Assembly (NCBI GenBank): GCA_018894615.1
Contig: JAHIPL010000005.1
Coordinates: 1,062 to 65,061, forward strand
From: Acidobacteriota bacterium
Lineage (GTDB): Bacteria > Acidobacteriota > Aminicenantia > Aminicenantales > Aminicenantaceae
Length of the DNA stretch: 64,000 nucleotides
Direction of reading: 5' to 3'
In this document: piece by piece, positions 4,738-55,620 of the stretch
How the letters are laid out: each line of letters opens with the position of its first letter
How positions within the stretch are numbered: the first letter of the stretch is position 1
Translations under genes and position numbers: made by a program
Notes under the pieces: model-generated
Databases searched by the model: none
Told to the model about the DNA's origin: nothing
The model's input: the letters and a program-made list of their open reading frames with translations, nothing else

Positions 4738-5985
4738 ATGAATGATAAACGACGGGTGAGTTTGATCGGCATATCGGCGCTGCTGATCCTTTTTGCTTCC
4801 TGTGCCGGAACGAATGAAGCGGACCTTTTGGAAAGGGCGCGGGTCATTCATGACGAGGTCCTGACCGTGGACACCCACTGTGACACTCCGATGCGTCTGA
4901 TCCGGGGGGAGTACGACATGGGCGAACGGCATGAATCCGGCGCGCGCGGAGGGAAAATCGATCTTCCCCGGATGAAGGAGGGCGGTCTGGATGCCGAGTT
5001 TTTTGCCGCCTTTGTCGGACAGGGAGAATTGACGCCGGAAGGATATGCCGCCGCCAGGGAAAGGGCCGACCGGATGATCGATGCCGTCGAAGAGATGTGC
5101 AGCCGTTATCCGGAGCTCGTGGAGAAGGCGACAACACCGGAGGATGCCGAACGGCTGGAGAACGCCGGGAAACGGGCGGCTTTCATCGGAATCGAGAACG
5201 GCTATCCCATCGGGCGGGATTTGGGTCTCGTGAAACACTTTTTTGATCGGGGGGTTCGCTCCATCACCCTCTGCCACGGCGGGGACAACGATATCTGCGA
5301 TTCCGCCACGGAAAGACGTAATCCTGAAGATGAAGGATTGAGTGAATTCGGCAGGGCGGTTGTCGAAGAGTGCAACCGTCTCGGTGTGATGGTCGATCTC
5401 AGCCATCTTTCGGAACGGTCCATCTACGATGTGCTGGAGCATTCCAGGGCTCCTGTTTTTGCCTCACATTCCAGCGTCCGGGCCCTCTGTGATCACCCGC
5501 GCAATTTAACAGACGACATGCTGAAAAAGCTTAAAGAGAATGGCGGGGTCATCCAGATTTGTCTGGTCAGCAGTTTTCTCAAAACACCCGAACCCAATCC
5601 CGAACGGGATAAGGCGCGAGAGGAACTCCGGGAACAGTACAGCACATCCGCCGACAGCGAGGATGAAGGGGTCCGTGACCGGATGCGCCAGGAATACCGC
5701 CGGATCCTTGAAAAACATCCCATGGAACGAGCCACTGTCAAGGATCTTGTGAACCACATCGATTATGTCGTTCGGCTGATAGGCGTGGCCCATGTCGGAA
5801 TCGGAACCGATTTTGACGGGGGAGGCGGCATCGACGGCTGTGATCATGTGGGCGAGATGCCTAACATTACGGTGGAACTGCTGCGGCGGGGTTATTCAAA
5901 AGAGGACATCGCCAAAATCTGGGGAGGAAATGTCATGCGCGTGCTGCGGGACGTCATCGAAACGGCTGCCGGGACGACCTCCTGA
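4738..5985 (+). CDS. Membrane dipeptidase (peptidase M19 family), lipoprotein. Start chosen at the ATG with the GGAGGA RBS; the ORF track starts at 4708.
   Basis: Lipobox LLILFASCAGT. Renal-dipeptidase-like HCDTP motif near the N-terminus and (beta/alpha)8 metallo-dipeptidase length. Confidence 0.7.
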   Translation: MNDKRRVSLIGISALLILFASCAGTNEADLLERARVIHDEVLTVDTHCDTPMRLIRGEYDMGERHESGARGGKIDLPRMKEGGLDAEFFAAFVGQGELTPEGYAAARERADRMIDAVEEMCSRYPELVEKATTPEDAERLENAGKRAAFIGIENGYPIGRDLGLVKHFFDRGVRSITLCHGGDNDICDSATERRNPEDEGLSEFGRAVVEECNRLGVMVDLSHLSERSIYDVLEHSRAPVFASHSSVRALCDHPRNLTDDMLKKLKENGGVIQICLVSSFLKTPEPNPERDKAREELREQYSTSADSEDEGVRDRMRQEYRRILEKHPMERATVKDLVNHIDYVVRLIGVAHVGIGTDFDGGGGIDGCDHVGEMPNITVELLRRGYSKEDIAKIWGGNVMRVLRDVIETAAGTTS

Positions 5986-6088
5986 CAATCAGCTCTTCGT
6001 CTTGCTTTTCGCGGGGTGTTTCCCTATGATGTGAGAAAAGGCCATTCCCATCAAAGAGCGACCCTCACGGCCGGCTTTAGAGAAAACC

Positions 6089-15378: not shown

Positions 15379-16548
15379 TTATTCGTAGACGATCCGGTTG
15401 GGATCGGCCGTGGCCGGATTTTTAAGGAAGGCTCCGACCCCTCTGTCGACGATGTCGGAATAGCGGGGAACACCGGAGACCACCAGCCCTCTATCCGCTT
15501 TTTCCTCGGTCCAGAGTTCGAAGATCTGAAGCAGAGTGGAGCAGTGGCGGCCGACGCGAAGGGCGATGGGCCAGCCGTTTTCGTCGATTTTTTCAAACAG
15601 AAGTCCGTGTTTTCCCGCTCGAACGATAAACCGGTCCTTTCCTTCCAGAAGGAGTTTTCTGTCCGTCCTTCCGCGGGTGGCGTCGAGGAAGGGCTCGGGT
15701 GCCTCCAGCAGCAGGGAAATGGCGTCCGTGTGATCGCCGATCTCCCGGTGGCTCAGTCCCCGGAGGGCCTCGGGCGAGTTTTCCATGCCGATATTGAATC
15801 CCTCCATGCCCGAGATCATCATAGAGGAAAAGGCGGCCAGATCCTGACCTTTGGAATGGGCGACGATGGTGCTGATGACGGGGTACTGGAGTTCGGCCTC
15901 ATGAAGGTCGATGACGATGTCGATCCCCTCTTTTTTAATAAGTTCGGTCATGGCGAAGCAGGTCTGTTCGGTCAGCGTCCCGTGGGGCCGGCCGGGCCAG
16001 GTGCGGTTGATATTCCGAATATCGATGTAGGCCAGTTCCTGTCTGGAGGGGTAGTGGATATAGATCTCCGGATCGGGCCACTGGTCGAGAGGATTGGACC
16101 AGCGATCTCCCATACGGAAAGTCCGGCTGCCGAAGTTGGTTTCGATGGAGTAATCCGTCGGGTAGGCCCCGCCCAGCCGTGTGACCGTTGTCGCGCTTCG
16201 ATTGGTGGAGAGAATGAGGAAAAGCCGCCCTTTTTGAACGACGGCATTTTCGGCAAATATCCAGGCAGCAAGACGTCCGGCGGGTTCCTCCGGATGGGAG
16301 CCGCCCAGGACCAGGATCGCACCTCCCGGTTCCTCTCCTTCCAGGACATAGACATGGGCGTCATTGATGGTGCCGCTTATCCCGTCGAAATAATCGCTGA
16401 GATTTTTGACATCCGTAACCCCGGGGCCGAGAACGACCGGTTCTCTCAGGTTGCGGTGGCGGTAAAACTGTAATCCGGCGGAGATGAGGACAACGAGGGC
16501 CAGGAGGGAAAATGCTGTTTTACGCAGTGTGGCGGCGTGATCTTTCAT
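15379..16548 (-). CDS. Secreted M14-like zinc peptidase (succinylglutamate desuccinylase/aspartoacylase-carboxypeptidase fold). Candidate gamma-glutamyl hydrolase.
   Basis: N-terminal signal/TM LLALVVLISAGL; zinc motif GGSHPEEPAG (HxxE) with a downstream His; convergent with the pgs operon. Confidence 0.5.
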   Translation of the reverse strand: MKDHAATLRKTAFSLLALVVLISAGLQFYRHRNLREPVVLGPGVTDVKNLSDYFDGISGTINDAHVYVLEGEEPGGAILVLGGSHPEEPAGRLAAWIFAENAVVQKGRLFLILSTNRSATTVTRLGGAYPTDYSIETNFGSRTFRMGDRWSNPLDQWPDPEIYIHYPSRQELAYIDIRNINRTWPGRPHGTLTEQTCFAMTELIKKEGIDIVIDLHEAELQYPVISTIVAHSKGQDLAAFSSMMISGMEGFNIGMENSPEALRGLSHREIGDHTDAISLLLEAPEPFLDATRGRTDRKLLLEGKDRFIVRAGKHGLLFEKIDENGWPIALRVGRHCSTLLQIFELWTEEKADRGLVVSGVPRYSDIVDRGVGAFLKNPATADPNRIVYE

Positions 16549-16557
16549 GGTCGTTTC

Positions 16558-16707
16558 CTATTTCAGGCGGAGAAGGCGCAGAATAAAGGGCAGCAGGACG
16601 ATGAGGTAAAGAATTTCATCCTGCCATTTTTTACTGCGCAGAAAATTGATCATCAGCAGAACGGCGACGGCCGCCGCCAGAATGTAGTACATAACGGTTA
16701 TCATCAT
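16558..16707 (-). CDS. Small hydrophobic membrane protein (49 aa); it has no ORF-track entry because it is under 60 aa.
   Basis: Translation MMITVMYYILAAAVAVLLMINFLRSKKWQDEILYLIVLLPFILRLLRLK. Sits 10 nt downstream of the permease gene on the same strand. Confidence 0.35.
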   Translation of the reverse strand: MMITVMYYILAAAVAVLLMINFLRSKKWQDEILYLIVLLPFILRLLRLK

Positions 16708-16717
16708 TCTATTCTCT

Positions 16718-18004
16718 CTAAAGCATCGTTAAAAAAGCGAGTTTTTTGCTGAAGAGGACCATCAGCGTTCCGACGACCGCAATCAGCACGGCCGGGATCA
16801 GACAGTGTTTGAGCATTTCCCTGTAGGGCTCTTCCATGTGGACCGTATCCTTGGTCAGACGTCCGATGATGGCGGTGGGCGGCAAGGCGTCACCCAGAGG
16901 CCAGATGACACTCATGCCGGCCAGAGCGACGATAGGGTTGAGCCCGATGGTGTTGAACAGGAGCACAAGCGGGACGCCGAGCACGGGCGCGGCTCCCCAC
17001 ATGAGGACGGCCTCGGAAACGGGAAGTGTCAGAGCGAGGGTGGCGACCACGATAAACACGGGAAGGGTCACCACTGTAACCGCGATGAGGCCCCGGACAC
17101 CGGTGAGAGTCATGATCTGTACCAGAATTCCGACACAGGTCAGGGTGCCGATGAGGGGGAGGAGCTGCCGGATGGTATCCCGTGCTATTCGGAATACGGA
17201 CAGTCGGATCGGAGACAGGAGGAGGGACAGCAGGGCGGAGACGACAAACATCAGGGGCAGACCCACGATGGGAAGACTATGGGGCCAGACTCTCCCCGCT
17301 GCGATGAGGAAAAAGAAGGCGACAAAGGGAAGAATAACACGCAGCCAGTTCATTTTGTCCGGGGCCTCCGGCAGTTCCTTCAGGGCCTTGTCGAGGTCGA
17401 CCCGTTTGCCTTTCCAGCCCAGAATAAAGATTGTCAAAAGAGAAAGAAGGACACAGGGGATGAGAAGGGGCAGGAAAAATCCGACATAGGGCATATTGAC
17501 GCCGGCCGCTGTGAGCATGGCCCACAGGCTCACCGGAGGCGCTGCGGCGCTCAGCCCGGCGATGATGAACACGATGGCCGCTGTCCTCGGGCGGGACAGA
17601 CCCATGTAGCCGAGAACGACGGCGATCATGCCGCCTGTGATAAGCACGGTGACGCTTCCCGCACCGGTCAGTGCGCCCGGGATGAGGAGGATCAGGGTCA
17701 GCAGTAGAAAAAGGAGAATCTTGCTGTGGTGAAATTTCCTGAGAATGCCACGGATGACAAAGGCCACGCCGCCGGATTCCTTGAGCAGGTTCATGAAAAA
17801 AGTGGCGGTGATAAAAATCAGAATGATGTCCAGGTAGGTGAAGGCGCCCTCGGCGATGTGCCGGGCCGGGATGCCTGCTCCTCCGGCAAGGGCGCCGGCG
17901 AGGGCGGCGAAAAACATGGACAGTTCGGTGGAGATTTTAAATAATTTGGCCAGAATATAGGCGGCCACCATGCTGAGGAGAATGATTTCAGGGGAGAGAG
18001 TCAT
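16718..18004 (-). CDS. Polytopic permease, ion-transporter superfamily type (TRAP-DctM/GntP/DcuC-like, about 12 TM). Probable organic anion transporter.
   Basis: 428 aa, highly hydrophobic, with repeated G-rich helices. The family assignment is by overall architecture only. Confidence 0.4.
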   Translation of the reverse strand: MTLSPEIILLSMVAAYILAKLFKISTELSMFFAALAGALAGGAGIPARHIAEGAFTYLDIILIFITATFFMNLLKESGGVAFVIRGILRKFHHSKILLFLLLTLILLIPGALTGAGSVTVLITGGMIAVVLGYMGLSRPRTAAIVFIIAGLSAAAPPVSLWAMLTAAGVNMPYVGFFLPLLIPCVLLSLLTIFILGWKGKRVDLDKALKELPEAPDKMNWLRVILPFVAFFFLIAAGRVWPHSLPIVGLPLMFVVSALLSLLLSPIRLSVFRIARDTIRQLLPLIGTLTCVGILVQIMTLTGVRGLIAVTVVTLPVFIVVATLALTLPVSEAVLMWGAAPVLGVPLVLLFNTIGLNPIVALAGMSVIWPLGDALPPTAIIGRLTKDTVHMEEPYREMLKHCLIPAVLIAVVGTLMVLFSKKLAFLTML

Positions 18005-18031
18005 GGTTAGTCGATTTTGTGGATTTGAAGG

Positions 18032-18652
18032 CTACCGATGAAAAAGCTTTTGGATTTCGGAAATCAGATCCAGATTTTTTTCCACTTCGATGAGCGGGAT
18101 GTTTTTTTCTTTGGCGATGATGCTGAAACGGTTGTCTGAATTACCTTCCTTGTGGATGAGGAGAATGTCGGAAAAGGGAGCGACGGCGTCGATGCTCTGT
18201 TCATCCGTTGTGTCTCCGGCTGACGCACCCTGGGAACGGCGTTTCATGCCTTCGATGTGGGAACCGATGACGGTCATTCCCTGCTTTTTCGCTTCCGCGA
18301 TCAACGCTTCCGTCCGGCTCAGTTCATCCTCCATGGAAATGCCGGCCGCTCCCATGCCTTTGAGGCTGGCGCCCATGACGATGATGAGGGTTTTGAAAGG
18401 CGTGCCGGCTTCCTTTCCGGCTTTGAGGTCCTCTGAACTGGCCATTTCGGAGATCTCGTAAGCGATGGGATCGTATTCGAGCTTAGCCCGCATGAAGATG
18501 ACCTTCAACATGGCCGGGCCCGGGCTTTGGCCGCAGGATGTGATGAGGACGGGAAGTTCCGGCTTGGGCCCTTCGGGCTGGGCTGTCGATACGACGCTGC
18601 AGAGCATCAGAACGACCGCTGCCGCAACAACCACCCTGTATAATCTATGCAT
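18032..18652 (-). CDS. Secreted alpha/beta protein of unknown function (signal peptide)
   Basis: Signal sequence MHRLYRVVVAAAVVLMLCSVVSTAQP; no recognisable motif. Lies between the LarA-like and permease genes on the same strand. Confidence 0.4.
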   Translation of the reverse strand: MHRLYRVVVAAAVVLMLCSVVSTAQPEGPKPELPVLITSCGQSPGPAMLKVIFMRAKLEYDPIAYEISEMASSEDLKAGKEAGTPFKTLIIVMGASLKGMGAAGISMEDELSRTEALIAEAKKQGMTVIGSHIEGMKRRSQGASAGDTTDEQSIDAVAPFSDILLIHKEGNSDNRFSIIAKEKNIPLIEVEKNLDLISEIQKLFHR

Positions 18653-18713
18653 GATTCCTCCTGTGAAACGTTATTATCGGGAAAATCATCTTATGCCAAT
18701 CCCTTCCCCCACG

Positions 18714-20090
18714 TCAACTATTGGGGTCAGGCCTCAAAAGGGGAATGGCGTAGGGGCCGTCCTTGAGGATGGCGATGCGGGGGGGGCGGTTCAAGCGGCG
18801 CCTGAGCGCAGCGACGGTCCAGTCGACGGTTCTGTTCAGCAGGACGGAAAGATCCTTCGTCCGGGCGGTGATGGTCTGTGCGTCCGTTCCCGGAATCCAG
18901 TCGAAATCCTTTTCTCTTATATCCGGACAGCAGTAGAGAAGGTGGTCGGGAGGAATGATCCGAAAGAGCCGTGCCCACATCTGGGGCTCCCACTGCTCCG
19001 GAACAAATGTCCAGTCGGGATCTTTAATGGCCTGTTCGTACATGTCCGGTCCCAGATCATTGAGCAGCCGGAGCATTTTTTTATAATGTGGGCCGCCGAT
19101 GGGATCGTTATCCGGGTGGCGGGCGGCGAGAATGCAGTATCCGTCCGGTTCGAGAATGGACGCGCAGACCGCTCCGGCTTTGGCCGCCTGGTAGTGGTTG
19201 ATGCCGACAAATCCCGCATGGGTGATGACAAGATCGTAACGGTCACGGACGGGAATGCCGACGTAGGATTGAAGGCAGCGGACCGCGGATTTGTGGGCTT
19301 CGACCAGATCGCCCGAAAAGACCCCGGACAGAGAATATTCGGCGTTCAGGGTGACATTGACGATAAAATCGCACCCGACCATGCGCGCAACGGCAAGAGC
19401 TTCCTCGTGGACGGGATTGCCTTCGAGGACCAGGTCGGCCGCTTTGGGGGAGGAGAGAATATGTCCGCCGTGAATGAGCTGTGTGCAGTGTTCGCCGATA
19501 AGGCCCGGGCAGATGGATTTTCTTCCCCCGGACGCACCGGCCATGAAGTGACTTTCAACGAGGCCGGTCAGGATTTTGATGTCTGCATCCCGGTAATGGC
19601 GGTTGATGAGGATTTTCCCGAGGAGAGGACGGTCGCCGATATGCACCAGATCATCCATTCGACGGCAATCGTGGTTGAGGACCTGAATGCCGTTCCGGAA
19701 AACATCGTCCGGTAGAAGGGCGCGAACGGCTTTTTCATTCAGCGGATGATGGGTGCCCGTGGCGATAAGAAGCTGAATGGCGGATTCCTTCAACCCGGCT
19801 CTCTTCATTTCCTGAAGAAGGGGGACAAGAAGACCCTCTTTCCCTTTGTAAGGAACAGGACGTGTGTTGTCGGAAAGAACCACAACGGCCCGGGCCTCAG
19901 GGTTTGCCCTGAGGCGGGATCGAATGATGTCCTTCAGGGGAGGCGAACCGATGGGCTTTCGAAGCGACCGTTCGATTTCTTCGCGGGGATTCCGGAGACG
20001 GGGAGCCGCGCCCATTTGGAGAACGACGGCCCCCGCGGGAACCTGCAGCGTCAGTTCCGTATGGCCGAGATCCAGTTTGATCGTGTTCAT
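18714..20090 (-). CDS. LarA-family protein (nickel-pincer-nucleotide-dependent 2-hydroxyacid racemase/epimerase family, DUF2088)
   Basis: LarA-like length and motifs: ATGTHHP (metal-binding His pair region), AGASGGRKSICPGL (GGRK with the cofactor-tethering Lys) and later conserved His residues. Confidence 0.65.
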   Translation of the reverse strand: MNTIKLDLGHTELTLQVPAGAVVLQMGAAPRLRNPREEIERSLRKPIGSPPLKDIIRSRLRANPEARAVVVLSDNTRPVPYKGKEGLLVPLLQEMKRAGLKESAIQLLIATGTHHPLNEKAVRALLPDDVFRNGIQVLNHDCRRMDDLVHIGDRPLLGKILINRHYRDADIKILTGLVESHFMAGASGGRKSICPGLIGEHCTQLIHGGHILSSPKAADLVLEGNPVHEEALAVARMVGCDFIVNVTLNAEYSLSGVFSGDLVEAHKSAVRCLQSYVGIPVRDRYDLVITHAGFVGINHYQAAKAGAVCASILEPDGYCILAARHPDNDPIGGPHYKKMLRLLNDLGPDMYEQAIKDPDWTFVPEQWEPQMWARLFRIIPPDHLLYCCPDIREKDFDWIPGTDAQTITARTKDLSVLLNRTVDWTVAALRRRLNRPPRIAILKDGPYAIPLLRPDPNS

Positions 20091-20298
20091 TGTTATGTTG
20101 CATTTTATCAGAATTCAACAGGGATGGTAAGCATGACACGGAGCATGACACAGAGCATGACACAGGGAGAAGGGGCTTGAATAAAAGAGAACCTCCTTTT
20201 CGCAGCAGAATGATCACAGCGGAATGATCACACGAAGCAGAATGATCACCATTGACTTCTGAAGTAATATCTGATATATCACATATCAGAGGTCGCCG

Positions 20299-20982
20299 AT
20301 GACAGGTCCTTCGTTACTGAATCTTCTCTCCCTGAAGGATCAGGTCTATGATTATCTTCGGGAGCGAATGAAAAAGGGTGAACTGCGGCCAGGTGCCGCC
20401 ATCAACACGGATGAAACCTCCGAGAGGCTCGGCATCAGCAAAACTCCGCTCAGAGATGCGCTCATCCGGCTCGAGGTGGAAGGATTTGTCACCATCCTCC
20501 CGCGGCGCGGTGTCATTGTGAACAGGCTGTCCCTCGCTGAAATAAAAGATTTTTATCAGATAATCGGCGCCCTGGAAAGCACGGCTCTTCTGTCCGCCGC
20601 TCCCCGGATGGGCGTCCGGGAGGTCGAGCGGATGAAGCGTCTGAACGGGCGGATGCGCGACGCTCTGGCCAAAGACAATTTTGAGCTGTATTACAACCAC
20701 AATCTGGCCATGCACAATGTTTATATCGATGTCTGCGGAAACGGGACAATCAGATCCACCCTTGACACTTTAAAAAAGCGTCTCTATGACTTTCCACGCT
20801 CACCCGATTTTATCAAGGAATGGGAAGAACGCTCCACGGAGGAGCATCAGACGTTTATTCAGCTTCTCTCCGATGGGCGGTTCGACGAGGCGGCCCTTTA
20901 CATGCGGGACGTGCACTGGTCTTTCGAGGTTCAAAAACCATTTCTTGTGAAATACTACTCGATTGAAGAAGATCATGTATAA
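20299..20982 (+). CDS. GntR-family transcriptional regulator (FadR/FCD subfamily)
   Basis: N-terminal winged HTH LGISKTPLRDALIRLEVEGFV; C-terminal all-helical FCD-like ligand domain. Confidence 0.85.
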   Translation: MTGPSLLNLLSLKDQVYDYLRERMKKGELRPGAAINTDETSERLGISKTPLRDALIRLEVEGFVTILPRRGVIVNRLSLAEIKDFYQIIGALESTALLSAAPRMGVREVERMKRLNGRMRDALAKDNFELYYNHNLAMHNVYIDVCGNGTIRSTLDTLKKRLYDFPRSPDFIKEWEERSTEEHQTFIQLLSDGRFDEAALYMRDVHWSFEVQKPFLVKYYSIEEDHV

Positions 20983-21880
20983 AGGCATCATTTTCGACAT
21001 CAAGCGCTATGCCATCCATGACGGCCCCGGCATTCGGACCACGGTTTTTTTAAAAGGCTGCCCGCTTTCCTGCCGGTGGTGTCACAATCCGGAGGGGATC
21101 GAGAGCGGGAGGCGGCTGATGTTCCGGGACAACCGGTGTCTGGGATGCGGAGAATGTGCGGCGGTCTGTCCCGAAGGCGCAATTGATCTGAAGGATGGAA
21201 AAGCCTTCGTCCGGCCCTCCGCCTGCCGCCTTCATTCCGCTTGTGTGGATGCCTGCCCCACCGAGGCCCTTCAGATGATCGGCCGTCTCGTGACCCCCCG
21301 GGAGATGATGGAGGAGATCGAAAAGGATCGCGTCTTTTTTGAAGAATCCGGCGGCGGTGTGACATTTTCAGGGGGCGAGCCCCTGGCTCAATTCCCTTTT
21401 CTGCTGGAATGCCTGCAGGCCTGCCGGAAAGCGGGGATCCGCACCTGCGTGGACACCTGCGGCCTGGCTTCCTCTGAGCACCTCGCCGCCGCGGCCGCAT
21501 TCACCGATCTTTTCCTCTATGACATCAAGGTGATGGATGAAGCGCGGCACATCGAAGCAACGGGAGTGTCCAATCGATCGATCCTCGCCAACCTTAAAAA
21601 ATTGTCCGCGGACGGGCATTTCATTATCGCCCGCATCCCCCTGATCCCCGGCATCAACGACGACCGGGACAACCTCCGCCGGACCGTTCGGTTTTTGCGG
21701 GAGAACACACCCCTTCGACGGATCAGCCTGCTGCCCTATCACACCATCGCCGATCAGAAATATGCCCGTCTTCAGGAGACCCGGAGAATGGAGAGGATTC
21801 AGACTCACTCCCAAGAGGAGATTCAGACCATCACCACATTCATCCAGGATCTCGGTCTGGAAGTGAGAATAGGAAGTTAA
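20963..21880 (+). CDS. Glycyl-radical enzyme activating protein (radical SAM with extra ferredoxin-like clusters)
   Basis: CPLSCRWCHNPE radical SAM cluster; CLGCGECAAVCPEGAI and CRLHSACVDACP auxiliary clusters; GGEP motif. Overlaps the GntR gene by 20 nt. Confidence 0.85.
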   Translation: MKKIMYKGIIFDIKRYAIHDGPGIRTTVFLKGCPLSCRWCHNPEGIESGRRLMFRDNRCLGCGECAAVCPEGAIDLKDGKAFVRPSACRLHSACVDACPTEALQMIGRLVTPREMMEEIEKDRVFFEESGGGVTFSGGEPLAQFPFLLECLQACRKAGIRTCVDTCGLASSEHLAAAAAFTDLFLYDIKVMDEARHIEATGVSNRSILANLKKLSADGHFIIARIPLIPGINDDRDNLRRTVRFLRENTPLRRISLLPYHTIADQKYARLQETRRMERIQTHSQEEIQTITTFIQDLGLEVRIGS

Positions 21881-21882
21881 AA

Positions 21883-24246
21883 ATGAACAAACGCATTCAT
21901 CGATTAAGAGAACAATCACTGACCGTCAAACCCGGTATTTCCGTGGAACGGGCCCGTCTGCTCACGGAATTTTATACAGATCCCGAATCCGCCTCTCTCT
22001 CCGTGCCTGTTTGCCGGGCTGCCGCTTTTCGGCACATCATGGCCAACAAAACCGTCTGCATCAACGAGGGAGAGCTCATCGTTGGAGAGCGGGGGCCCTC
22101 TCCCAAGGCGACACCGACCTATCCCGAGATCACCGTTCACAGCGTGGAAGATTTCGAGATCCTGAACTCCCGTGAAAAGACATCCTATTCCGTGGATGAG
22201 AAGAGCAAAGCCGTTTACCGCGACACGATCATCCCCTTCTGGAAGGGGCGGTCCATCCGGGATCGAATTCTTTCATCCGTATCGCCGTCCTGGATGGATG
22301 CTTACGAGGCGGGGATCTTCACGGAATTTATGGAGCAGAGGGCGCCGGGTCACACCGTTCTGGATGACAAGATCTACCGTAAGGGGATGCTGGACTTCAA
22401 AAGGGAGATAGCGGAGAGTATCGCCCGGCTGGATTTCCTGGAGGACCCGGAGGCCTTCGACAAGCGGGAACAGCTCAGAGCCATGGACATCGCCGCGGAG
22501 GCCCTTATCTGTTTTGCCGGGCGGCACGCGGAAAAAATCGATGAAATGGCGGCGAACGAAAGCGATCCCTCCCGCAGAAAGGAACTGGACAGGATGGCCG
22601 ATGTCTGTCGGAGGGTCCCGGCCCAAGCCCCGCGGGATTTCTGGGAAGCCCTGCAGTCCTACTGGTTCGTCCACCTGGGAGTCATCACCGAACTGAACGG
22701 GTGGGATTCCTTTAATCCCGGCCGTCTGGACCAGCATCTGTTTCCGTTCTATAAAAAAGGGCTGGAGGACGGCTCTCTCACAGAAGAGGGGGCCCGGGAG
22801 CTGCTTCAGGCGTTCTGGATCAAGTTCAATAATCAACCGGCGCCGCCCAAGGTGGGTGTCACGGCTGAGGAAAGCGGGACTTACACCGATTTCGCCCTTA
22901 TCAACACGGGCGGGGTGAAGGAGGACGGATCGGATGCCGTCAACCCCCTTTCCTATCTCATTCTGGATGTCATCGAGGAGATGCGGATTCTTCAGCCCAG
23001 CTCGTGCGTCCAGCTCAGCAAGAAGAATCCGGAGAGTTTCATTCACCGGGCCATCAAGGTGATCCGGACGGGATTCGGCCAGCCCTCGATTTTTAACACG
23101 GACGCCATCGTTCAGGAACTGGTCCGGATGGGGAAAACCGTCGAGGATGCCCGCAACGGAGGCGCCAGCGGATGTGTGGAAGTGGGGGCTTTCGGTAAGG
23201 AAAACTACACATTGACGGGCTACTTCAATATGGTCAAGGTCCTGGAGATCACTCTGAACAACGGCGTCGATCCCCGGACGGGAAAAACCATCGGCCTTCA
23301 AACAGGAGACCCGGCGGGATTCAATTCCTTTGAAGAGCTATTTTCCGCCTTTCGCCGCCAGATCCGTCACTTTGTCGACATCAAAATCGAAGGGAACAAT
23401 ATCATCGAGCGGCTTTACGCACTCCATGTCCCGGCCCCCTTTCTCTCTCTGCTTATCGACGACTGCATTCTGAAGGGAAAGGACTACCATGAGGGCGGGG
23501 CCCGCTACAACACCTCCTATATTCAGGGCGTGGGCATGGGCTCCATCACGGATTCTCTGACGTCCATCCTCTACCATGTCTACCACAAAAAAGATCTGAC
23601 CATGGCCGGGCTGCTGAAAATGCTGGCGGAAGATTTCGAGGGGGCTGAAATCTGGCGGCAGCGCTTTCTCAATAAAACCCCGAAGTACGGAAACGACGAC
23701 GACTACGCCGACGATGTCATGCGCTCCATTTTTGAAGTGTACTACGAGACCATCGACGGCCGGCCCAATACAAAAGGCGGAACCTACCGCATCAACCTGC
23801 TGCCGACGACCGTGCACGTCTACTTCGGAAAAGTGACCGGAGCCACACCCGACGGGCGACGGGCGAATCAGCCGCTTTCCGAGGGCATCTCTCCCGTCCA
23901 GGGAGCGGACCGCCAGGGGCCGACGGCCGTCGTCAAGTCGGCGGCAAAAATGGACCATGTGCGGACGGGCGGCACGCTTCTCAATCAGAAATTCGCCCCG
24001 TCTCTTCTGGCCGGACAGGAAGGGGTGGCCAATCTCGCTTCCCTCGTCCGGTCCTATTTCAAGATGGACGGGCACCATATCCAGTTTAATGTCGTCAGCG
24101 CCGACACGCTCCGCAATGCAAAAGACAATCCGGAACAATACCGGGATCTGATCGTCCGGGTGGCCGGCTACAGCGATTATTTCTGTGACTTGAGCGAGGC
24201 CCTTCAAAATGAGATCATTCAGCGAACCGAGCACGAAGCGTTTTGA
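21883..24246 (+). CDS. Glycyl radical enzyme, single-Cys 1,2-eliminase class (CutC/HypD/GDH-like), substrate unknown
   Basis: C-terminal glycyl radical motif RVAGYSDYF; active-site loop GGASGCVEVG (Cys-x-Glu as in dehydratase/lyase GREs, not the PFL Cys-Cys); 787 aa. Confidence 0.85.
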   Translation: MNKRIHRLREQSLTVKPGISVERARLLTEFYTDPESASLSVPVCRAAAFRHIMANKTVCINEGELIVGERGPSPKATPTYPEITVHSVEDFEILNSREKTSYSVDEKSKAVYRDTIIPFWKGRSIRDRILSSVSPSWMDAYEAGIFTEFMEQRAPGHTVLDDKIYRKGMLDFKREIAESIARLDFLEDPEAFDKREQLRAMDIAAEALICFAGRHAEKIDEMAANESDPSRRKELDRMADVCRRVPAQAPRDFWEALQSYWFVHLGVITELNGWDSFNPGRLDQHLFPFYKKGLEDGSLTEEGARELLQAFWIKFNNQPAPPKVGVTAEESGTYTDFALINTGGVKEDGSDAVNPLSYLILDVIEEMRILQPSSCVQLSKKNPESFIHRAIKVIRTGFGQPSIFNTDAIVQELVRMGKTVEDARNGGASGCVEVGAFGKENYTLTGYFNMVKVLEITLNNGVDPRTGKTIGLQTGDPAGFNSFEELFSAFRRQIRHFVDIKIEGNNIIERLYALHVPAPFLSLLIDDCILKGKDYHEGGARYNTSYIQGVGMGSITDSLTSILYHVYHKKDLTMAGLLKMLAEDFEGAEIWRQRFLNKTPKYGNDDDYADDVMRSIFEVYYETIDGRPNTKGGTYRINLLPTTVHVYFGKVTGATPDGRRANQPLSEGISPVQGADRQGPTAVVKSAAKMDHVRTGGTLLNQKFAPSLLAGQEGVANLASLVRSYFKMDGHHIQFNVVSADTLRNAKDNPEQYRDLIVRVAGYSDYFCDLSEALQNEIIQRTEHEAF

Positions 24247-24325: not shown

Positions 24326-25930
24326 ATGAGCAAAAAATGGGGTTTTTATCTTTTGATCGGGATGTTCGCCGGATTATGGGGATGCCGCCCTCCCGCGGAA
24401 ACAGGAGAAATCACCCCTGCTGAAATCGAAGCCCATATCCGTTTTCTGGCCGACGATCTTCTGGAAGGGAGAGCCGTTGGAAGCCGGGGGCATGAACTGG
24501 CCGTCCTGTACCAGGAAAACCATTTTCGCGGCCTGGGACTCGAGCCTGCCTTCGGCGGCGGCTACCGCCAGTCCTTTTTTCTGAAGGCAGCTCTGCCGGA
24601 TGAAAAAGCTTCCGTGGAAGTGTTTTCAGAGAGAGGCTCGTTCTCGCTGTCCAATCAGGAACATTTTGTCATCAACAGTGCCAGAGAAGATGTTCCGGAT
24701 GGAGTCGAAGGAGAGCTCGTCTATGCCGGTTTTCTCATTCAGGCGCCGGAAAGGGACTGGGATGATCTGAAGGAAAAGGATGTCAAGGGAAAGGTGCTGC
24801 TGGTCGAGATCAACGAGCCCGGAAATGAGGCCGGAGGAATTTTTGACGGGGAGGACATGACCTACTACGGCCGCTGGACCTACAAGTTTGAAAAGGCGTC
24901 CGAGCTGGGCGCCACCGGCATTCTGATCATCCACAACACCGGGGGCGCCGCCTACGGGTGGGAGGTCGTCAGGAGTTCTGCGACGGGAGAGAGCTGCTTT
25001 CTCCCCGATGTGGAAAACAGGCTCTTTTTCCAGGGATGGATCAGCGGGGAAACAGCCGACCGCATTTTTTCCGCCGCCGGATTCGACAGGGCGGAGTGGG
25101 CCCGTCGGGCGGAAGAACGGGATTTTGAACCGGCTGCCCTGGGAGTGAACGTGCGTGTGCGGCAGCGTCCCCGCTTCCGCACGGTCGAAACGGAAAATGT
25201 GGCCGCCCTTCTGCGCGGCCGGCACAAAAAACACACCGGCCGGACCGTTATCCTGTCCGCTCATTTTGATCATTTCGGAATAGACCCGGCGCTCGAAGGG
25301 GATCAGATTTACAACGGTGCTGTGGATAACTGCGCCGCTTCAGCCGCGATGCTGTCACTGGCCCGCTTTTATGCGGACCATGTCGATGATCTGAAGGTGG
25401 ATCTTCTATTTGCGGCGGTGACGGCGGAGGAGCAGGGGCTTCTGGGTTCGAATTATCTGGCCCGTCACCTCCCCGTTCCAAAGGAAAATGTTCTGGCCAA
25501 CCTCAATTTCGAGATGACCGGTGTCTGGGGGGAAACCCAGGACGTTTACGGGATAGGAGCCAAACAGTCCGACCTGGATGAGATCTGCAGCGAAGCCGCC
25601 CGGAAATGCGGTTACCGCTACATTCCCGAGCGGGACGGAAATCTGGGCTATTTTTTCCGCTCCGATCAATTGAGTTTTGCCCGGGTCGGCATTCCGTCCG
25701 TCTGGCTTCACGAAGGCATCACCTCACGCGGCGGAGACCCGAATTATATACAACGGAAACATGAGGAGTTCAGGGCATCCCGATACCACAAGGTGGCCGA
25801 TGAAATGGATGAAGACTGGGATCTGTCGGGAACCCGTCAAATCACCCGCTGGGCTCAGGCCATCATTTCCCTTCTGTCGGAGAGGAGTGATCTGCCGCAG
25901 TTCAAGTCTTCAAGTTCGTTCAGGCGATGA
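24326..25930 (+). CDS. M28-family peptidase with PA domain (aminopeptidase/glutamate carboxypeptidase-like), lipoprotein
   Basis: Lipobox FAGLWGC; M28 metal-binding motifs (HFDHFG, DNCAASAAMLSLA, EEQGLLGS); PA domain insert. Confidence 0.75.
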   Translation: MSKKWGFYLLIGMFAGLWGCRPPAETGEITPAEIEAHIRFLADDLLEGRAVGSRGHELAVLYQENHFRGLGLEPAFGGGYRQSFFLKAALPDEKASVEVFSERGSFSLSNQEHFVINSAREDVPDGVEGELVYAGFLIQAPERDWDDLKEKDVKGKVLLVEINEPGNEAGGIFDGEDMTYYGRWTYKFEKASELGATGILIIHNTGGAAYGWEVVRSSATGESCFLPDVENRLFFQGWISGETADRIFSAAGFDRAEWARRAEERDFEPAALGVNVRVRQRPRFRTVETENVAALLRGRHKKHTGRTVILSAHFDHFGIDPALEGDQIYNGAVDNCAASAAMLSLARFYADHVDDLKVDLLFAAVTAEEQGLLGSNYLARHLPVPKENVLANLNFEMTGVWGETQDVYGIGAKQSDLDEICSEAARKCGYRYIPERDGNLGYFFRSDQLSFARVGIPSVWLHEGITSRGGDPNYIQRKHEEFRASRYHKVADEMDEDWDLSGTRQITRWAQAIISLLSERSDLPQFKSSSSFRR

Positions 25931-54504: not shown

Positions 54505-55620
54505 ATGAAACGCGGATTTCGAATAGGAAAAATCGCCGGGATCGATATCCATGTCGATTCAAGCTGGTTCATCATCTTCGTCCTTTTTTCCTGGATGCTG
54601 GCGACAACCTATTTTCCCGGCAGTTTTCCGGGCGCCGGGCCGATCATTTACTGGCTGCTCGGCCTTGTCACCAGCCTTCTTGTTTTTGTTTCCGTCCTTA
54701 TCCATGAACTGGCCCATTCCCTCGTGGCCATCAAGCAGGGCGAAAAAGTCGACCGCATCACCCTGTTCATTCTGGGGGGAGTGGCCCAGATCACGGACGA
54801 GCCGAAGGAGCCCCTCTCCGAGTTTGTAATGGCGGTGGTCGGCCCCCTCACCAGTTTCATCCTGGCTTCATTTTTTTTCATGCTGTCTCTCCTTTTTTTC
54901 GGTGTCAGCGCGGCCCTGCGGTCGGCCCTGATCTATCTGGCCATCATCAACACCGTGCTGGGGCTGTTCAATCTGATCCCTGGATTTCCCATGGACGGCG
55001 GCCGGGTGCTGCGTTCCATCCTGTGGTCCATGACGGGGGATCTGCGCCGGGCGACCCGGATCGCCTCCTTTTCCGGCCAGGCCTTTTCCTTTCTCCTTGT
55101 TTTTCTTGGTATTCTTGAGGTTCTGCGCGGATCTTTATCCGGCCTCTGGCTGATTTTTGTGGGCTGGTTCCTTCAGAACGCCGCTGTCCGCGGCTACCGG
55201 CAGGTGGTGATGAAAACCCAGCTTCGCGGCACAAAAGCCAGGGATCTGATGGTGGAACACTTCACCGTCGTTGACGGAGGCATCACGGTTCAGATCCTTG
55301 TCGATCATTTTATTTTAAAGAAGAAGGAGCGGATTTTCCTTGTCGGAGGGGAGGACTATCTGCGCGGCATCGTCTGCACGGACGACGTCAAAAAAGTGCC
55401 GAAGATGCAGAGGGGGGAGACGTTTGTTCAGGACATCATGACACCGCGAGACAGGCTTGAGTTCGTCGGCCCCGATGAGGACGGTGAGGCGATTCTGAGG
55501 AAACTGGCCGCCCGGGATGTCAATCTGATTCCCGTCATGGACGAAGAAAAACTGATAGGTGTCATCTGTCAGAGCGATCTTCTTCGCTACATCCAGCTGA
55601 AGAATGAACTGAAATCCTGA
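54505..55620 (+). CDS. M50-family site-2 protease homolog with tandem CBS domains
   Basis: HELAHSLVA (HExxH) in TM helix; LIPGFPMDGGRVL second motif; C-terminal CBS pair. Confidence 0.8.
   Translation: MKRGFRIGKIAGIDIHVDSSWFIIFVLFSWMLATTYFPGSFPGAGPIIYWLLGLVTSLLVFVSVLIHELAHSLVAIKQGEKVDRITLFILGGVAQITDEPKEPLSEFVMAVVGPLTSFILASFFFMLSLLFFGVSAALRSALIYLAIINTVLGLFNLIPGFPMDGGRVLRSILWSMTGDLRRATRIASFSGQAFSFLLVFLGILEVLRGSLSGLWLIFVGWFLQNAAVRGYRQVVMKTQLRGTKARDLMVEHFTVVDGGITVQILVDHFILKKKERIFLVGGEDYLRGIVCTDDVKKVPKMQRGETFVQDIMTPRDRLEFVGPDEDGEAILRKLAARDVNLIPVMDEEKLIGVICQSDLLRYIQLKNELKS

Follow-up and report, generated by a model that had tools for sequence, protein, structure and literature searches.

The DNA analysed in this work is a 64,000-nucleotide stretch of contig JAHIPL010000005.1 from an Acidobacteriota bacterium of the Aminicenantales (hereafter the window), and its intergenic region at 20091-20298 separates a LarA-like gene from a divergent gene for a GntR-family regulator, which is followed by genes for a glycyl-radical activase and for trans-4-hydroxy-L-proline dehydratase (HypD). 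Sequence comparison strongly supports the assignment of a 24-bp symmetric element just upstream of the GntR start, TAATATCTGATATATCACATATCA, as the local operator of this regulator, a predicted repressor with an FCD effector domain, in an anaerobic hydroxyproline dehydratase operon of the glycyl-radical type. The element is conserved across Aminicenantes species, has two-fold symmetry, is positioned over the predicted promoter and co-occurs with this clade of GntR proteins and with the activase and HypD genes. The same intergenic region holds two arrays of short direct repeats, three tandem 12-mers and three copies of a box, which most likely are recent tandem duplications in a fast-evolving spacer. 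All three features (the palindrome and the two arrays) had been pointed out in an original prediction made from the letters of the sequence, and all three are real and non-random. Regulator and operator together are ordinary and of a known type; the phylum and the pathway are unstudied.

Eighty loci encoding relatives of the GntR protein (52-64% identity) were fetched from species-representative genomes, 811 kb in total, and the window proteins were mapped onto them to read the gene order. The order GntR-activase-HypD is present in about 35 of the 80 loci, and none has a LarA-like neighbour. In all 31 loci with an adjacent activase gene, where HypD is also found wherever the contig reaches far enough, TAATATCTGATATATCACATATCA is matched at 1-7 mismatches (median 3), whereas the best match has at least 8 mismatches in all 48 loci in which the GntR relative lacks an adjacent activase or HypD gene; shuffled controls gave best matches of 7-13 mismatches. 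The motif is thus found together with the regulator clade and the presumed target genes in 31 of 31 loci versus 0 of 48. By eye, the same element can be recognized just upstream of the GntR start in almost every GntR-activase-HypD locus. A weight matrix constructed from the other species only scored 41 bits at 20265-20288 and 12.4 bits at the next-best position, so that this is the only strong site in the 64 kb. When the 811 kb of the 80 loci was scanned, nearly all hits of at least 18 bits, and all strong ones, were located immediately before the first gene of an operon for activase and HypD. The same held for loci with a different gene arrangement: in L007 the motif is found directly before the activase gene, 1.2 kb downstream of GntR, and not before GntR; in L010 the activase and HypD genes are divergent and the motif faces them; and in L024, L036 and L044 it precedes the activase-HypD operon at a distance of 3.6 kb from GntR. 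What the motif tracks is the activase-HypD pair, not the GntR gene, and the earlier proposal of an operator that overlies the -10 and controls the GntR-activase-glycyl-radical enzyme operon is supported by a motif before every orthologous operon examined.

The element consists of four TGATAT-like hexamers, two in each orientation, and conforms to the pattern T(G/A)ATAT-s-TGATAT followed directly by AT(T/C)A-s-ATATCA. In 25 or more of the 31 sites complementarity holds at nine of its 12 mirror pairs, as expected of two-fold symmetry. Since the -10 hexamer remains TATATT in most species, the usual combination at pair 9/16 is G/T; pair 7/18 is variable and displays no covariation (complementary in 9 of 31 sites), which argues against an RNA hairpin. 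The palindrome TCTGATAT-ATCAC-ATATCAGA, which the original prediction took as the operator, does have perfectly complementary 8-nt arms with a 5-nt spacer and does overlap the -10, but its axis is not the conserved one, since the palindrome is composed of hexamers 2 and 4 plus flanking bases and the 24-nt element is centred at 20276/20277. The mirror image of this palindrome, formed by hexamers 1 and 3 (TAATATCTGATATATCA), was found independently, and the element may be read either as a single extended 24-bp site or as a pair of 17-bp sites that overlap with an offset of 7 bp. The half-sites had been thought to surround a T.GT/AC.A core; in the window as well as in the consensus the core is TGAT..ATCA, one mismatch per half-site away from the family motif TKGT/ACMA (Suvorova et al. 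2015, as quoted in PMC6608401).

The dyad of the element lies on the predicted extended -10 (TG-n-TATAT(T/C)) of the regulator's own promoter, for which the -35 hexamer, the 17-nt spacer and the -10 hexamer proposed earlier were all found as given. Of 33 orthologous sites, 23 have TATATT and 5 have TATATC as the central hexamer, and in 24 of the 33 a TTGACA-like hexamer (at least four of six positions) precedes the central TATAT(T/C) by 15-18 nt, in most cases by 17. The promoter scan did not call this promoter in the window, only because its -10 carries C at position 6. Conservation reaches 8-10 nt to either side of the -10 in a mirror-symmetric manner, and the outer hexamers are conserved on the two sides, mirroring each other, to a degree that exceeds the needs of a promoter.

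The regulator consists of an N-terminal winged-helix domain (PF00392, 56.5 bits, cutoff 27) and a C-terminal FCD domain (PF07729, 62.6 bits, cutoff 24.3), which makes it a member of the FadR subfamily, and its nearest solved structures, 3fms and 3sxy, are both GntR-family FCD proteins. Its homologues come from metagenome-assembled genomes of Aminicenantes/Acidobacteriota, and H139, H183 and H206, candidate residues of the FCD metal/effector site, are invariant across 39 of them. The top NCBIfam match is a phosphonate-associated regulator with a score far under its cutoff. The dehydratase is assigned at the equivalog level (Table 1) and its top match in the PDB is 6vxc, a HypD. The activase gene overlaps the GntR gene, and neighbours among the three genes either overlap or lie end to end, an arrangement expected for an operon. 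Regulators of the FadR subfamily typically are dimers on two-fold symmetric operators, and PdhR, LldR and UxuR/ExuR are FCD-domain GntR proteins that act as local repressors with palindromic operators. The window system resembles these in the winged-helix and FCD domains, in the position of the regulator gene first in or next to a catabolic operon, and in a two-fold symmetric, AT-rich operator whose inner TGAT-AT-ATCA has TGGT-AT-ACCA-type geometry; it differs in its half-site sequence, in the presence of four hexamers over 24 bp, and in its target, a glycyl-radical operon in Aminicenantes. A functional parallel in hydroxyproline catabolism is HypR of S. coelicolor, a FadR-type hydroxyproline regulator that was shown experimentally to be an autorepressor with a site covering its own -10 (PMC6608401); autoregulated HypR regulons are also described in Proteobacteria, including Sinorhizobium meliloti (PMC5343134). 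Like HypR, the window protein would be an autoregulated, probably metal-binding FCD regulator of the FadR subfamily that controls hydroxyproline catabolism, with a site over its own -10. The HypR regulons, in contrast, serve the aerobic epimerase/oxidase pathway, whereas the predicted target here is the anaerobic HypD with its activase, and the S. coelicolor motif CTNTGC(A/C)ATGTCAC (PMC6608401) is unrelated to the TGATAT hexamers. No described transcriptional regulator of a glycyl-radical hydroxyproline dehydratase was found in the searchable literature.

The two repeat arrays both lie in the middle segment of the intergenic region. The 12-mers, AGCATGACAC(G/A)G, occur in the order AGCATGACACGG, AGCATGACACAG, AGCATGACACAG at the predicted position; they had been called perfect and are identical at 35 of 36 positions, and their Tandem Repeats Finder (TRF) score of 65 is the highest in the window. 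The boxes, GAATGATCAC, are likewise where they were said to be, and the repeated unit is really longer, 14 nt in the form AGC(A/G)GAATGATCAC (with ACGA inserted at 20232-35) or 17 nt as delimited by a repeat search (CGCAGCAGAATGATCAC at 20201-17, CACAGCGGAATGATCAC at 20215-31 and CGAAGCAGAATGATCAC at 20233-49), with start-to-start spacings of 14 and 18. The box array ends 2 nt short of the -35 of the hypD promoter. Neither repeat core has an exact copy elsewhere in the 64 kb, and one-mismatch copies are at chance level. A direct repeat of at least 9 nt within 40 nt occurs in only about 3.6% of shuffled 260-nt upstream regions; 7 of 79 comparable upstream regions of GntR relatives hold one such repeat each, and none carries similar arrays. 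The 12-mer core AGCATGA-CAC can be aligned to the box sequence AGAATGATCAC with one substitution and one indel (score 22 versus a shuffle mean of 9.6, reached by 26 of 2000 shuffles), and by this alignment the two arrays together are six same-orientation variants of one unit, AG(C/A)ATGA(T)CAC. The starts of the six units are spaced by 12, 12, 53, 14 and 18 nt, an irregular series without helical phasing (about 10-11 or 21 bp), and the units are near-identical even in the bases between cores.

The distribution of the arrays was followed by exact-protein look-ups, which yielded 12 further contigs of the same species (DNA 99.3-99.9% identical to the window) and four contigs of a sister species (GntR 81% identical, DNA about 80-83%); an exact look-up of the LarA-like protein of the window returned no record, and a metagenome scan with the promoter/operator pattern recovered two contigs, both among those already found by protein. 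The sister species has the same divergent layout, with DUF6305 and LarA-like genes on one strand and GntR, activase and HypD on the other, and an intergenic region of 126 nt. In the blastn alignment of the two species homology ends at 20113 and resumes at 20252, bracketing both arrays exactly, and on either side of this segment both core promoters and the operator are conserved. The sister species lacks both arrays, as do all of the 80 other loci, and the middle segment 20114-20251 is not repeated elsewhere in the window or in the roughly 0.8 Mb of related loci. Nine of the 13 same-species contigs do not differ from the window here; in L090 and L093 (L086 duplicates contig L093) 1 nt is missing from 12-mer unit 1 and 4 nt are missing at 20096-99; and L081, with an overall identity of 99.3% to the window, carries a single 12-mer, the 24-nt difference being the only indel in the 7.9 kb aligned. 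The identical three-copy allele is found in 10 of 13 independent assemblies and the one-unit allele in 1 of 13, an observation that points weakly to instability. All 13 contigs have the three boxes, with one substitution outside the core. Near-identical units, irregular spacing, restriction to a single lineage and strain indels all fit a history of recent tandem duplication.

Two other readings of the conserved 24-mer have to be weighed. It could be just a strong promoter, an extended -10 with an AT-rich discriminator, and not a protein operator; the central TG-n-TATAT(T/C) is indeed an extended -10, and position 16 is T in most species, breaking the symmetry toward the -10 consensus. The outer hexamers, however, are about as conserved as the -10 and mirror each other, the motif is missing from the promoters of neighbouring genes and from those of GntR relatives, and it occurs specifically together with HypD and GntR proteins of this clade, so that we regard a promoter without operator function as very unlikely. 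The palindrome might instead form an RNA hairpin in a 5' leader, for which a structure of -7.4 kcal/mol is possible, or the 12-mers might encode a leader peptide (MLCVMLRVMLTIPVEF, 20158..20108) regulating the LarA-like gene, a thought encouraged by a 16-codon minus-strand open reading frame (ORF) with the same TGA in the sister species. Against an RNA-level role stand the missing covariation at pair 7/18, the folding of the intergenic region, no better than that of shuffles (z = -1.45), a predicted start site inside the palindrome, and a permissive Rfam scan of 19800-20600 without a match; the mini-ORF has no Shine-Dalgarno sequence, is reduced to 8 codons in L081 and is frame-shifted in L090 and L093. 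We give this reading hardly any credence.

For the repeats, the main competitor holds that the six units are sites of a second regulator (an activator or a nucleoid-type protein) that controls one or both divergent promoters. The triplets lie immediately upstream of both predicted -35 hexamers, like the direct-repeat boxes of OmpR/PhoB-type activators, a common core and orientation unite the two arrays, no box core varies among the 13 strain contigs, and in the sister species a single degenerate copy (ACATGGTCAT) can be seen by eye upstream of the -35. The original prediction had offered this reading for the LarA/transporter operon and named conservation upstream of orthologous loci as the check on it, and the units are conserved neither in the sister species nor in any of the 80 loci. 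Nor are the cores enriched elsewhere in the 64 kb; the spacings are unphased, with periods of 12, 14 and 18 nt rather than the 10-11 nt of OmpR/PhoB-type boxes, and no cognate regulator gene is nearby; the 12-mer is present only once in one strain and a unit is damaged in two others; and the units agree as closely in the bases between cores as in the cores themselves, suggesting recent copying and not site selection. A second regulator is therefore unlikely in our estimation, and an extended form of the idea is more doubtful again, namely that the units constitute a recently evolved, species-specific platform for a regulator, one triplet per -35, which would couple the LarA-like and hydroxyproline operons, with gain and loss of units (3 versus 1) tuning expression. 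The direct repeats had also been suggested to be phase-variable; on this reading the 12-mer array would be a contingency element switching the LarA-like or the hypD operon, and the one-copy allele of L081 in an otherwise indel-free 7.9 kb is the kind of copy-number difference known from simple-sequence contingency loci. With only three copies of a 12-nt unit a low slippage rate is expected, however; the array is upstream of the LarA-like -35, outside the -35/-10 spacer and any coding sequence and far from the core of the hypD promoter, unlike a classical phase switch; and the L081 allele, set against one common allele in most assemblies, may be an artefact of assembly. Switching by this array is highly improbable. 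The comparisons as a whole neither support nor exclude a regulatory role for the direct repeats.

The explanation that we favour, and consider probable as a whole, combines a GntR operator with neutral duplication of the repeats. The region would consist of two back-to-back core promoters with a fast-evolving spacer between them. A sigma-70-type promoter (TTGACT, 17 nt, TG-n-TATATC) would drive GntR, activase and HypD, and probably the M28 peptidase gene as well; the FCD-type GntR protein encoded by the first gene would bind the 24-bp element as one or two dimers and block RNA polymerase, thus repressing the operon and its own synthesis until released by an effector. Binding by this GntR, the negative sign of the regulation, the transcription start sites and the nature of the effector, most plausibly hydroxyproline or a related metabolite, are what we infer from the arrangement. 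The six repeat copies would have arisen by recent tandem duplication (replication slippage) in the non-conserved spacer of this species and would stand outside the conserved control logic, modulating at most the strength of the promoters or the spacing between them. Several observations weigh against this explanation. Part of the central conservation (TGATATAT) is demanded by the extended -10 alone, and the half-sites depart from the TKGT/ACMA core of the FadR subfamily. On the side of the repeats, the lack of substitutions in the box cores compares with only about 0.7 hits expected by chance, each array abuts the -35 of one promoter, a classical position for activator sites, and most orthologous promoters have an A-rich tract at the position of the boxes, which could have replaced a function. 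The single-copy L081 allele could be an assembly collapse, in a contig that ends 250 nt upstream of the GntR start.

Table 1. Coordinates of the genes and predicted control elements in and around the intergenic region of the window.
Feature	Position	Strand	Remarks
Intergenic region	20091-20298		between the divergent LarA-like (-) and GntR (+) genes
LarA-like gene	18714-20090	-	Lar_N domain; scores under every NCBIfam LarA-homologue cutoff
Predicted LarA-like promoter	20102-20130	-	-35 TTACCA 20130..20125; 17 nt; extended -10 TGATAAAAT 20110..20102
Species-specific middle segment	20114-20251		138 nt; holds both arrays
Three tandem 12-mers, AGCATGACAC(G/A)G	20130-20165	+	abut the predicted LarA-like -35
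Box copies, GAATGATCAC	20208-17, 20222-31, 20240-49	+	
14-nt box units, AGC(A/G)GAATGATCAC	20204-17, 20218-31, 20236-49	+	ACGA inserted at 20232-35
Predicted -35 of GntR/hypD promoter, TTGACT	20252-57	+	17 nt to TATATC; identical in sister species
24-bp symmetric operator (putative), TAATATCTGATATATCACATATCA	20265-20288		four TGATAT-like hexamers; dyad 20276/20277
Operator hexamer 1, TAATAT	20265-70	forward	
Operator hexamer 2, TGATAT	20272-77	forward	
Operator hexamer 3, ATATCA	20276-81	reverse	
Operator hexamer 4, ATATCA	20283-88	reverse	
Palindrome TCTGATAT-ATCAC-ATATCAGA	20270-20290		arms 20270-77 and 20283-90; hexamers 2 + 4 plus flanking bases; axis 20280
Predicted extended -10, TGATATATC (TG-n-TATATC)	20272-20280	+	on operator dyad; TATATC at 20275-80
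GntR-family regulator, FCD effector domain, FadR subfamily	20299-20982	+	227 aa; PF00392 + PF07729
Glycyl-radical activase	20963-21880	+	NF043069, 363 bits, under the equivalog cutoff of 425
trans-4-Hydroxy-L-proline dehydratase HypD	21883-24246	+	NF043068, 1312.8 bits (cutoff 1100)
M28 peptidase	24326-25930	+	after HypD

On the other side of the intergenic region, the LarA-like gene is the first of a minus-strand cluster (15379-20090) that also contains DUF6305, a 428-aa protein without a Pfam hit and a weak AstE/AspA-like protein, and the LarA-like/DUF6305 pair adjoins the hypD operon only in the window species and its sister. The extended -10 of the predicted LarA-like promoter is only 12 nt from the ATG at 20090, which is not preceded by a Shine-Dalgarno sequence, and this suggests a very short leader; the CATTTTATCAGAA of this promoter is kept in the sister species. 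The matrix scan found no second operator at the LarA-like promoter, just one half-site-like TTATCAGA. The 16-codon minus-strand ORFs of the window (MLCVMLRVMLTIPVEF, 20158..20108) and of the sister species (MTMCCGGITVIFPAFF, L082 2231-2281) both stop at the same TGA inside a conserved TTCTGATAAAAT upstream of the LarA-like gene. On the minus strand the 12-mers read MLCV/MLRV/ML.., and a leader peptide was considered and rejected, as there is no ribosome-binding site and the frame is lost among strains; the two short ORFs are probably fortuitous. In L090 and L093 the loss of TTAT at 20096-99 and of one base of 12-mer unit 1 (20130-20141), five nt together, places the ATG codons within the 12-mers in the reading frame of the LarA-like gene, and the gene call in L090 is 479 aa versus 458 aa. 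A perfect Shine-Dalgarno-like octamer is present on the minus strand between the arrays (AAGGAGGT, 20191-20198), with no usably spaced start codon.

Some further candidates for the repeats were tried. A mobile element or MITE was rejected: there is no other copy in the window or the loci, and the 18-nt inverted arms overlap sequence that is conserved in the sister species lacking the insert. The GATCACA of the boxes resembles, by eye, the right half-site of a CRP site, but it has no inverted partner at the spacing required of a CRP/FNR-like site. Each box contains GATC and each 12-mer CATG, tetranucleotides whose frequencies in the window are an unremarkable 0.86 and 0.90 of Markov expectation, and a methylation switch at the repeats is speculation. 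The only other window tandem repeat of comparable TRF score (54855-54899; score 62, period 21, 2.1 copies) is located inside a long ORF (54505-55620) and not in an intergenic region.

The comparison of the 80 loci also brought up elements that are related to the operator or accompany related regulators. A half-operator, TGATATCTGATATATT (18.5 bits), is found at L026 853, L036 3553 and L044 3953, before a gene for a 657-aa sodium:solute symporter (PF00474) that immediately precedes GntR, a candidate hydroxyproline/proline transporter of the same regulon. An operator-like TGATATCTTGTGTATTAAATATCA (22.6 bits) occurs at L010 7154 and L009 6106, in L010 upstream of ATP-citrate-lyase-like genes (ATP-grasp_2/Citrate_bind, CoA-ligase and citrate synthase C-terminal domain), and may mark a regulon member or be a chance match. 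In a subgroup of the GntR-activase-HypD loci (L008 at about 5975-6000, L023, L031 and L038) the operator is about 100 nt upstream of the GntR start, and a second conserved block, CTTGAACCACCC....GGTGTTTGATACATTAAACAACAGAAAGGGTGGTTT-ATG, is located at the start codon; the arms of this block, AACCACCC/GGGTGGTT, are complementary, a palindrome, TGTTTGAT-AC-ATTAAACA, lies inside it, and it may be a second promoter/operator or a leader RNA. Eleven loci (L039, L042, L046, L047, L049, L054, L055, L062, L070, L071 and L076) share TTGACTTGGGGCGCGCATGTCAATATCCTAA about 60-90 nt upstream of the GntR relative, a direct/inverted TTGAC..GTCAA element that presumably marks a separate regulon. Four GntR relatives without HypD (L006, L011, L015 and L019) lie directly before genes for M28 peptidases that are 63-65% identical to that of the window, and they carry TTGACTTTGGTTAAATATTTATATACATATAATCC, whose AT-rich hexamer pattern recalls the hypD operator and suggests related operators for related regulators.

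The direct repeats illustrate the turnover of a spacer by tandem duplication between divergent promoters and, on present evidence, no new mechanism; if the platform reading were true, they would represent the observed birth of cis-regulatory sites by tandem duplication in an uncultured phylum. The operator, for its part, provides a testable regulator-operator pair for a glycyl-radical hydroxyproline dehydratase, and the 24-bp motif could be used to mark hydroxyproline-responsive genes in metagenomes or as the start of a hydroxyproline biosensor. For the Aminicenantes, uncultured but widespread anaerobes, it points to a small regulon composed of the activase and HypD genes, probably the M28 peptidase gene and, in some species, possibly a sodium:solute symporter gene.

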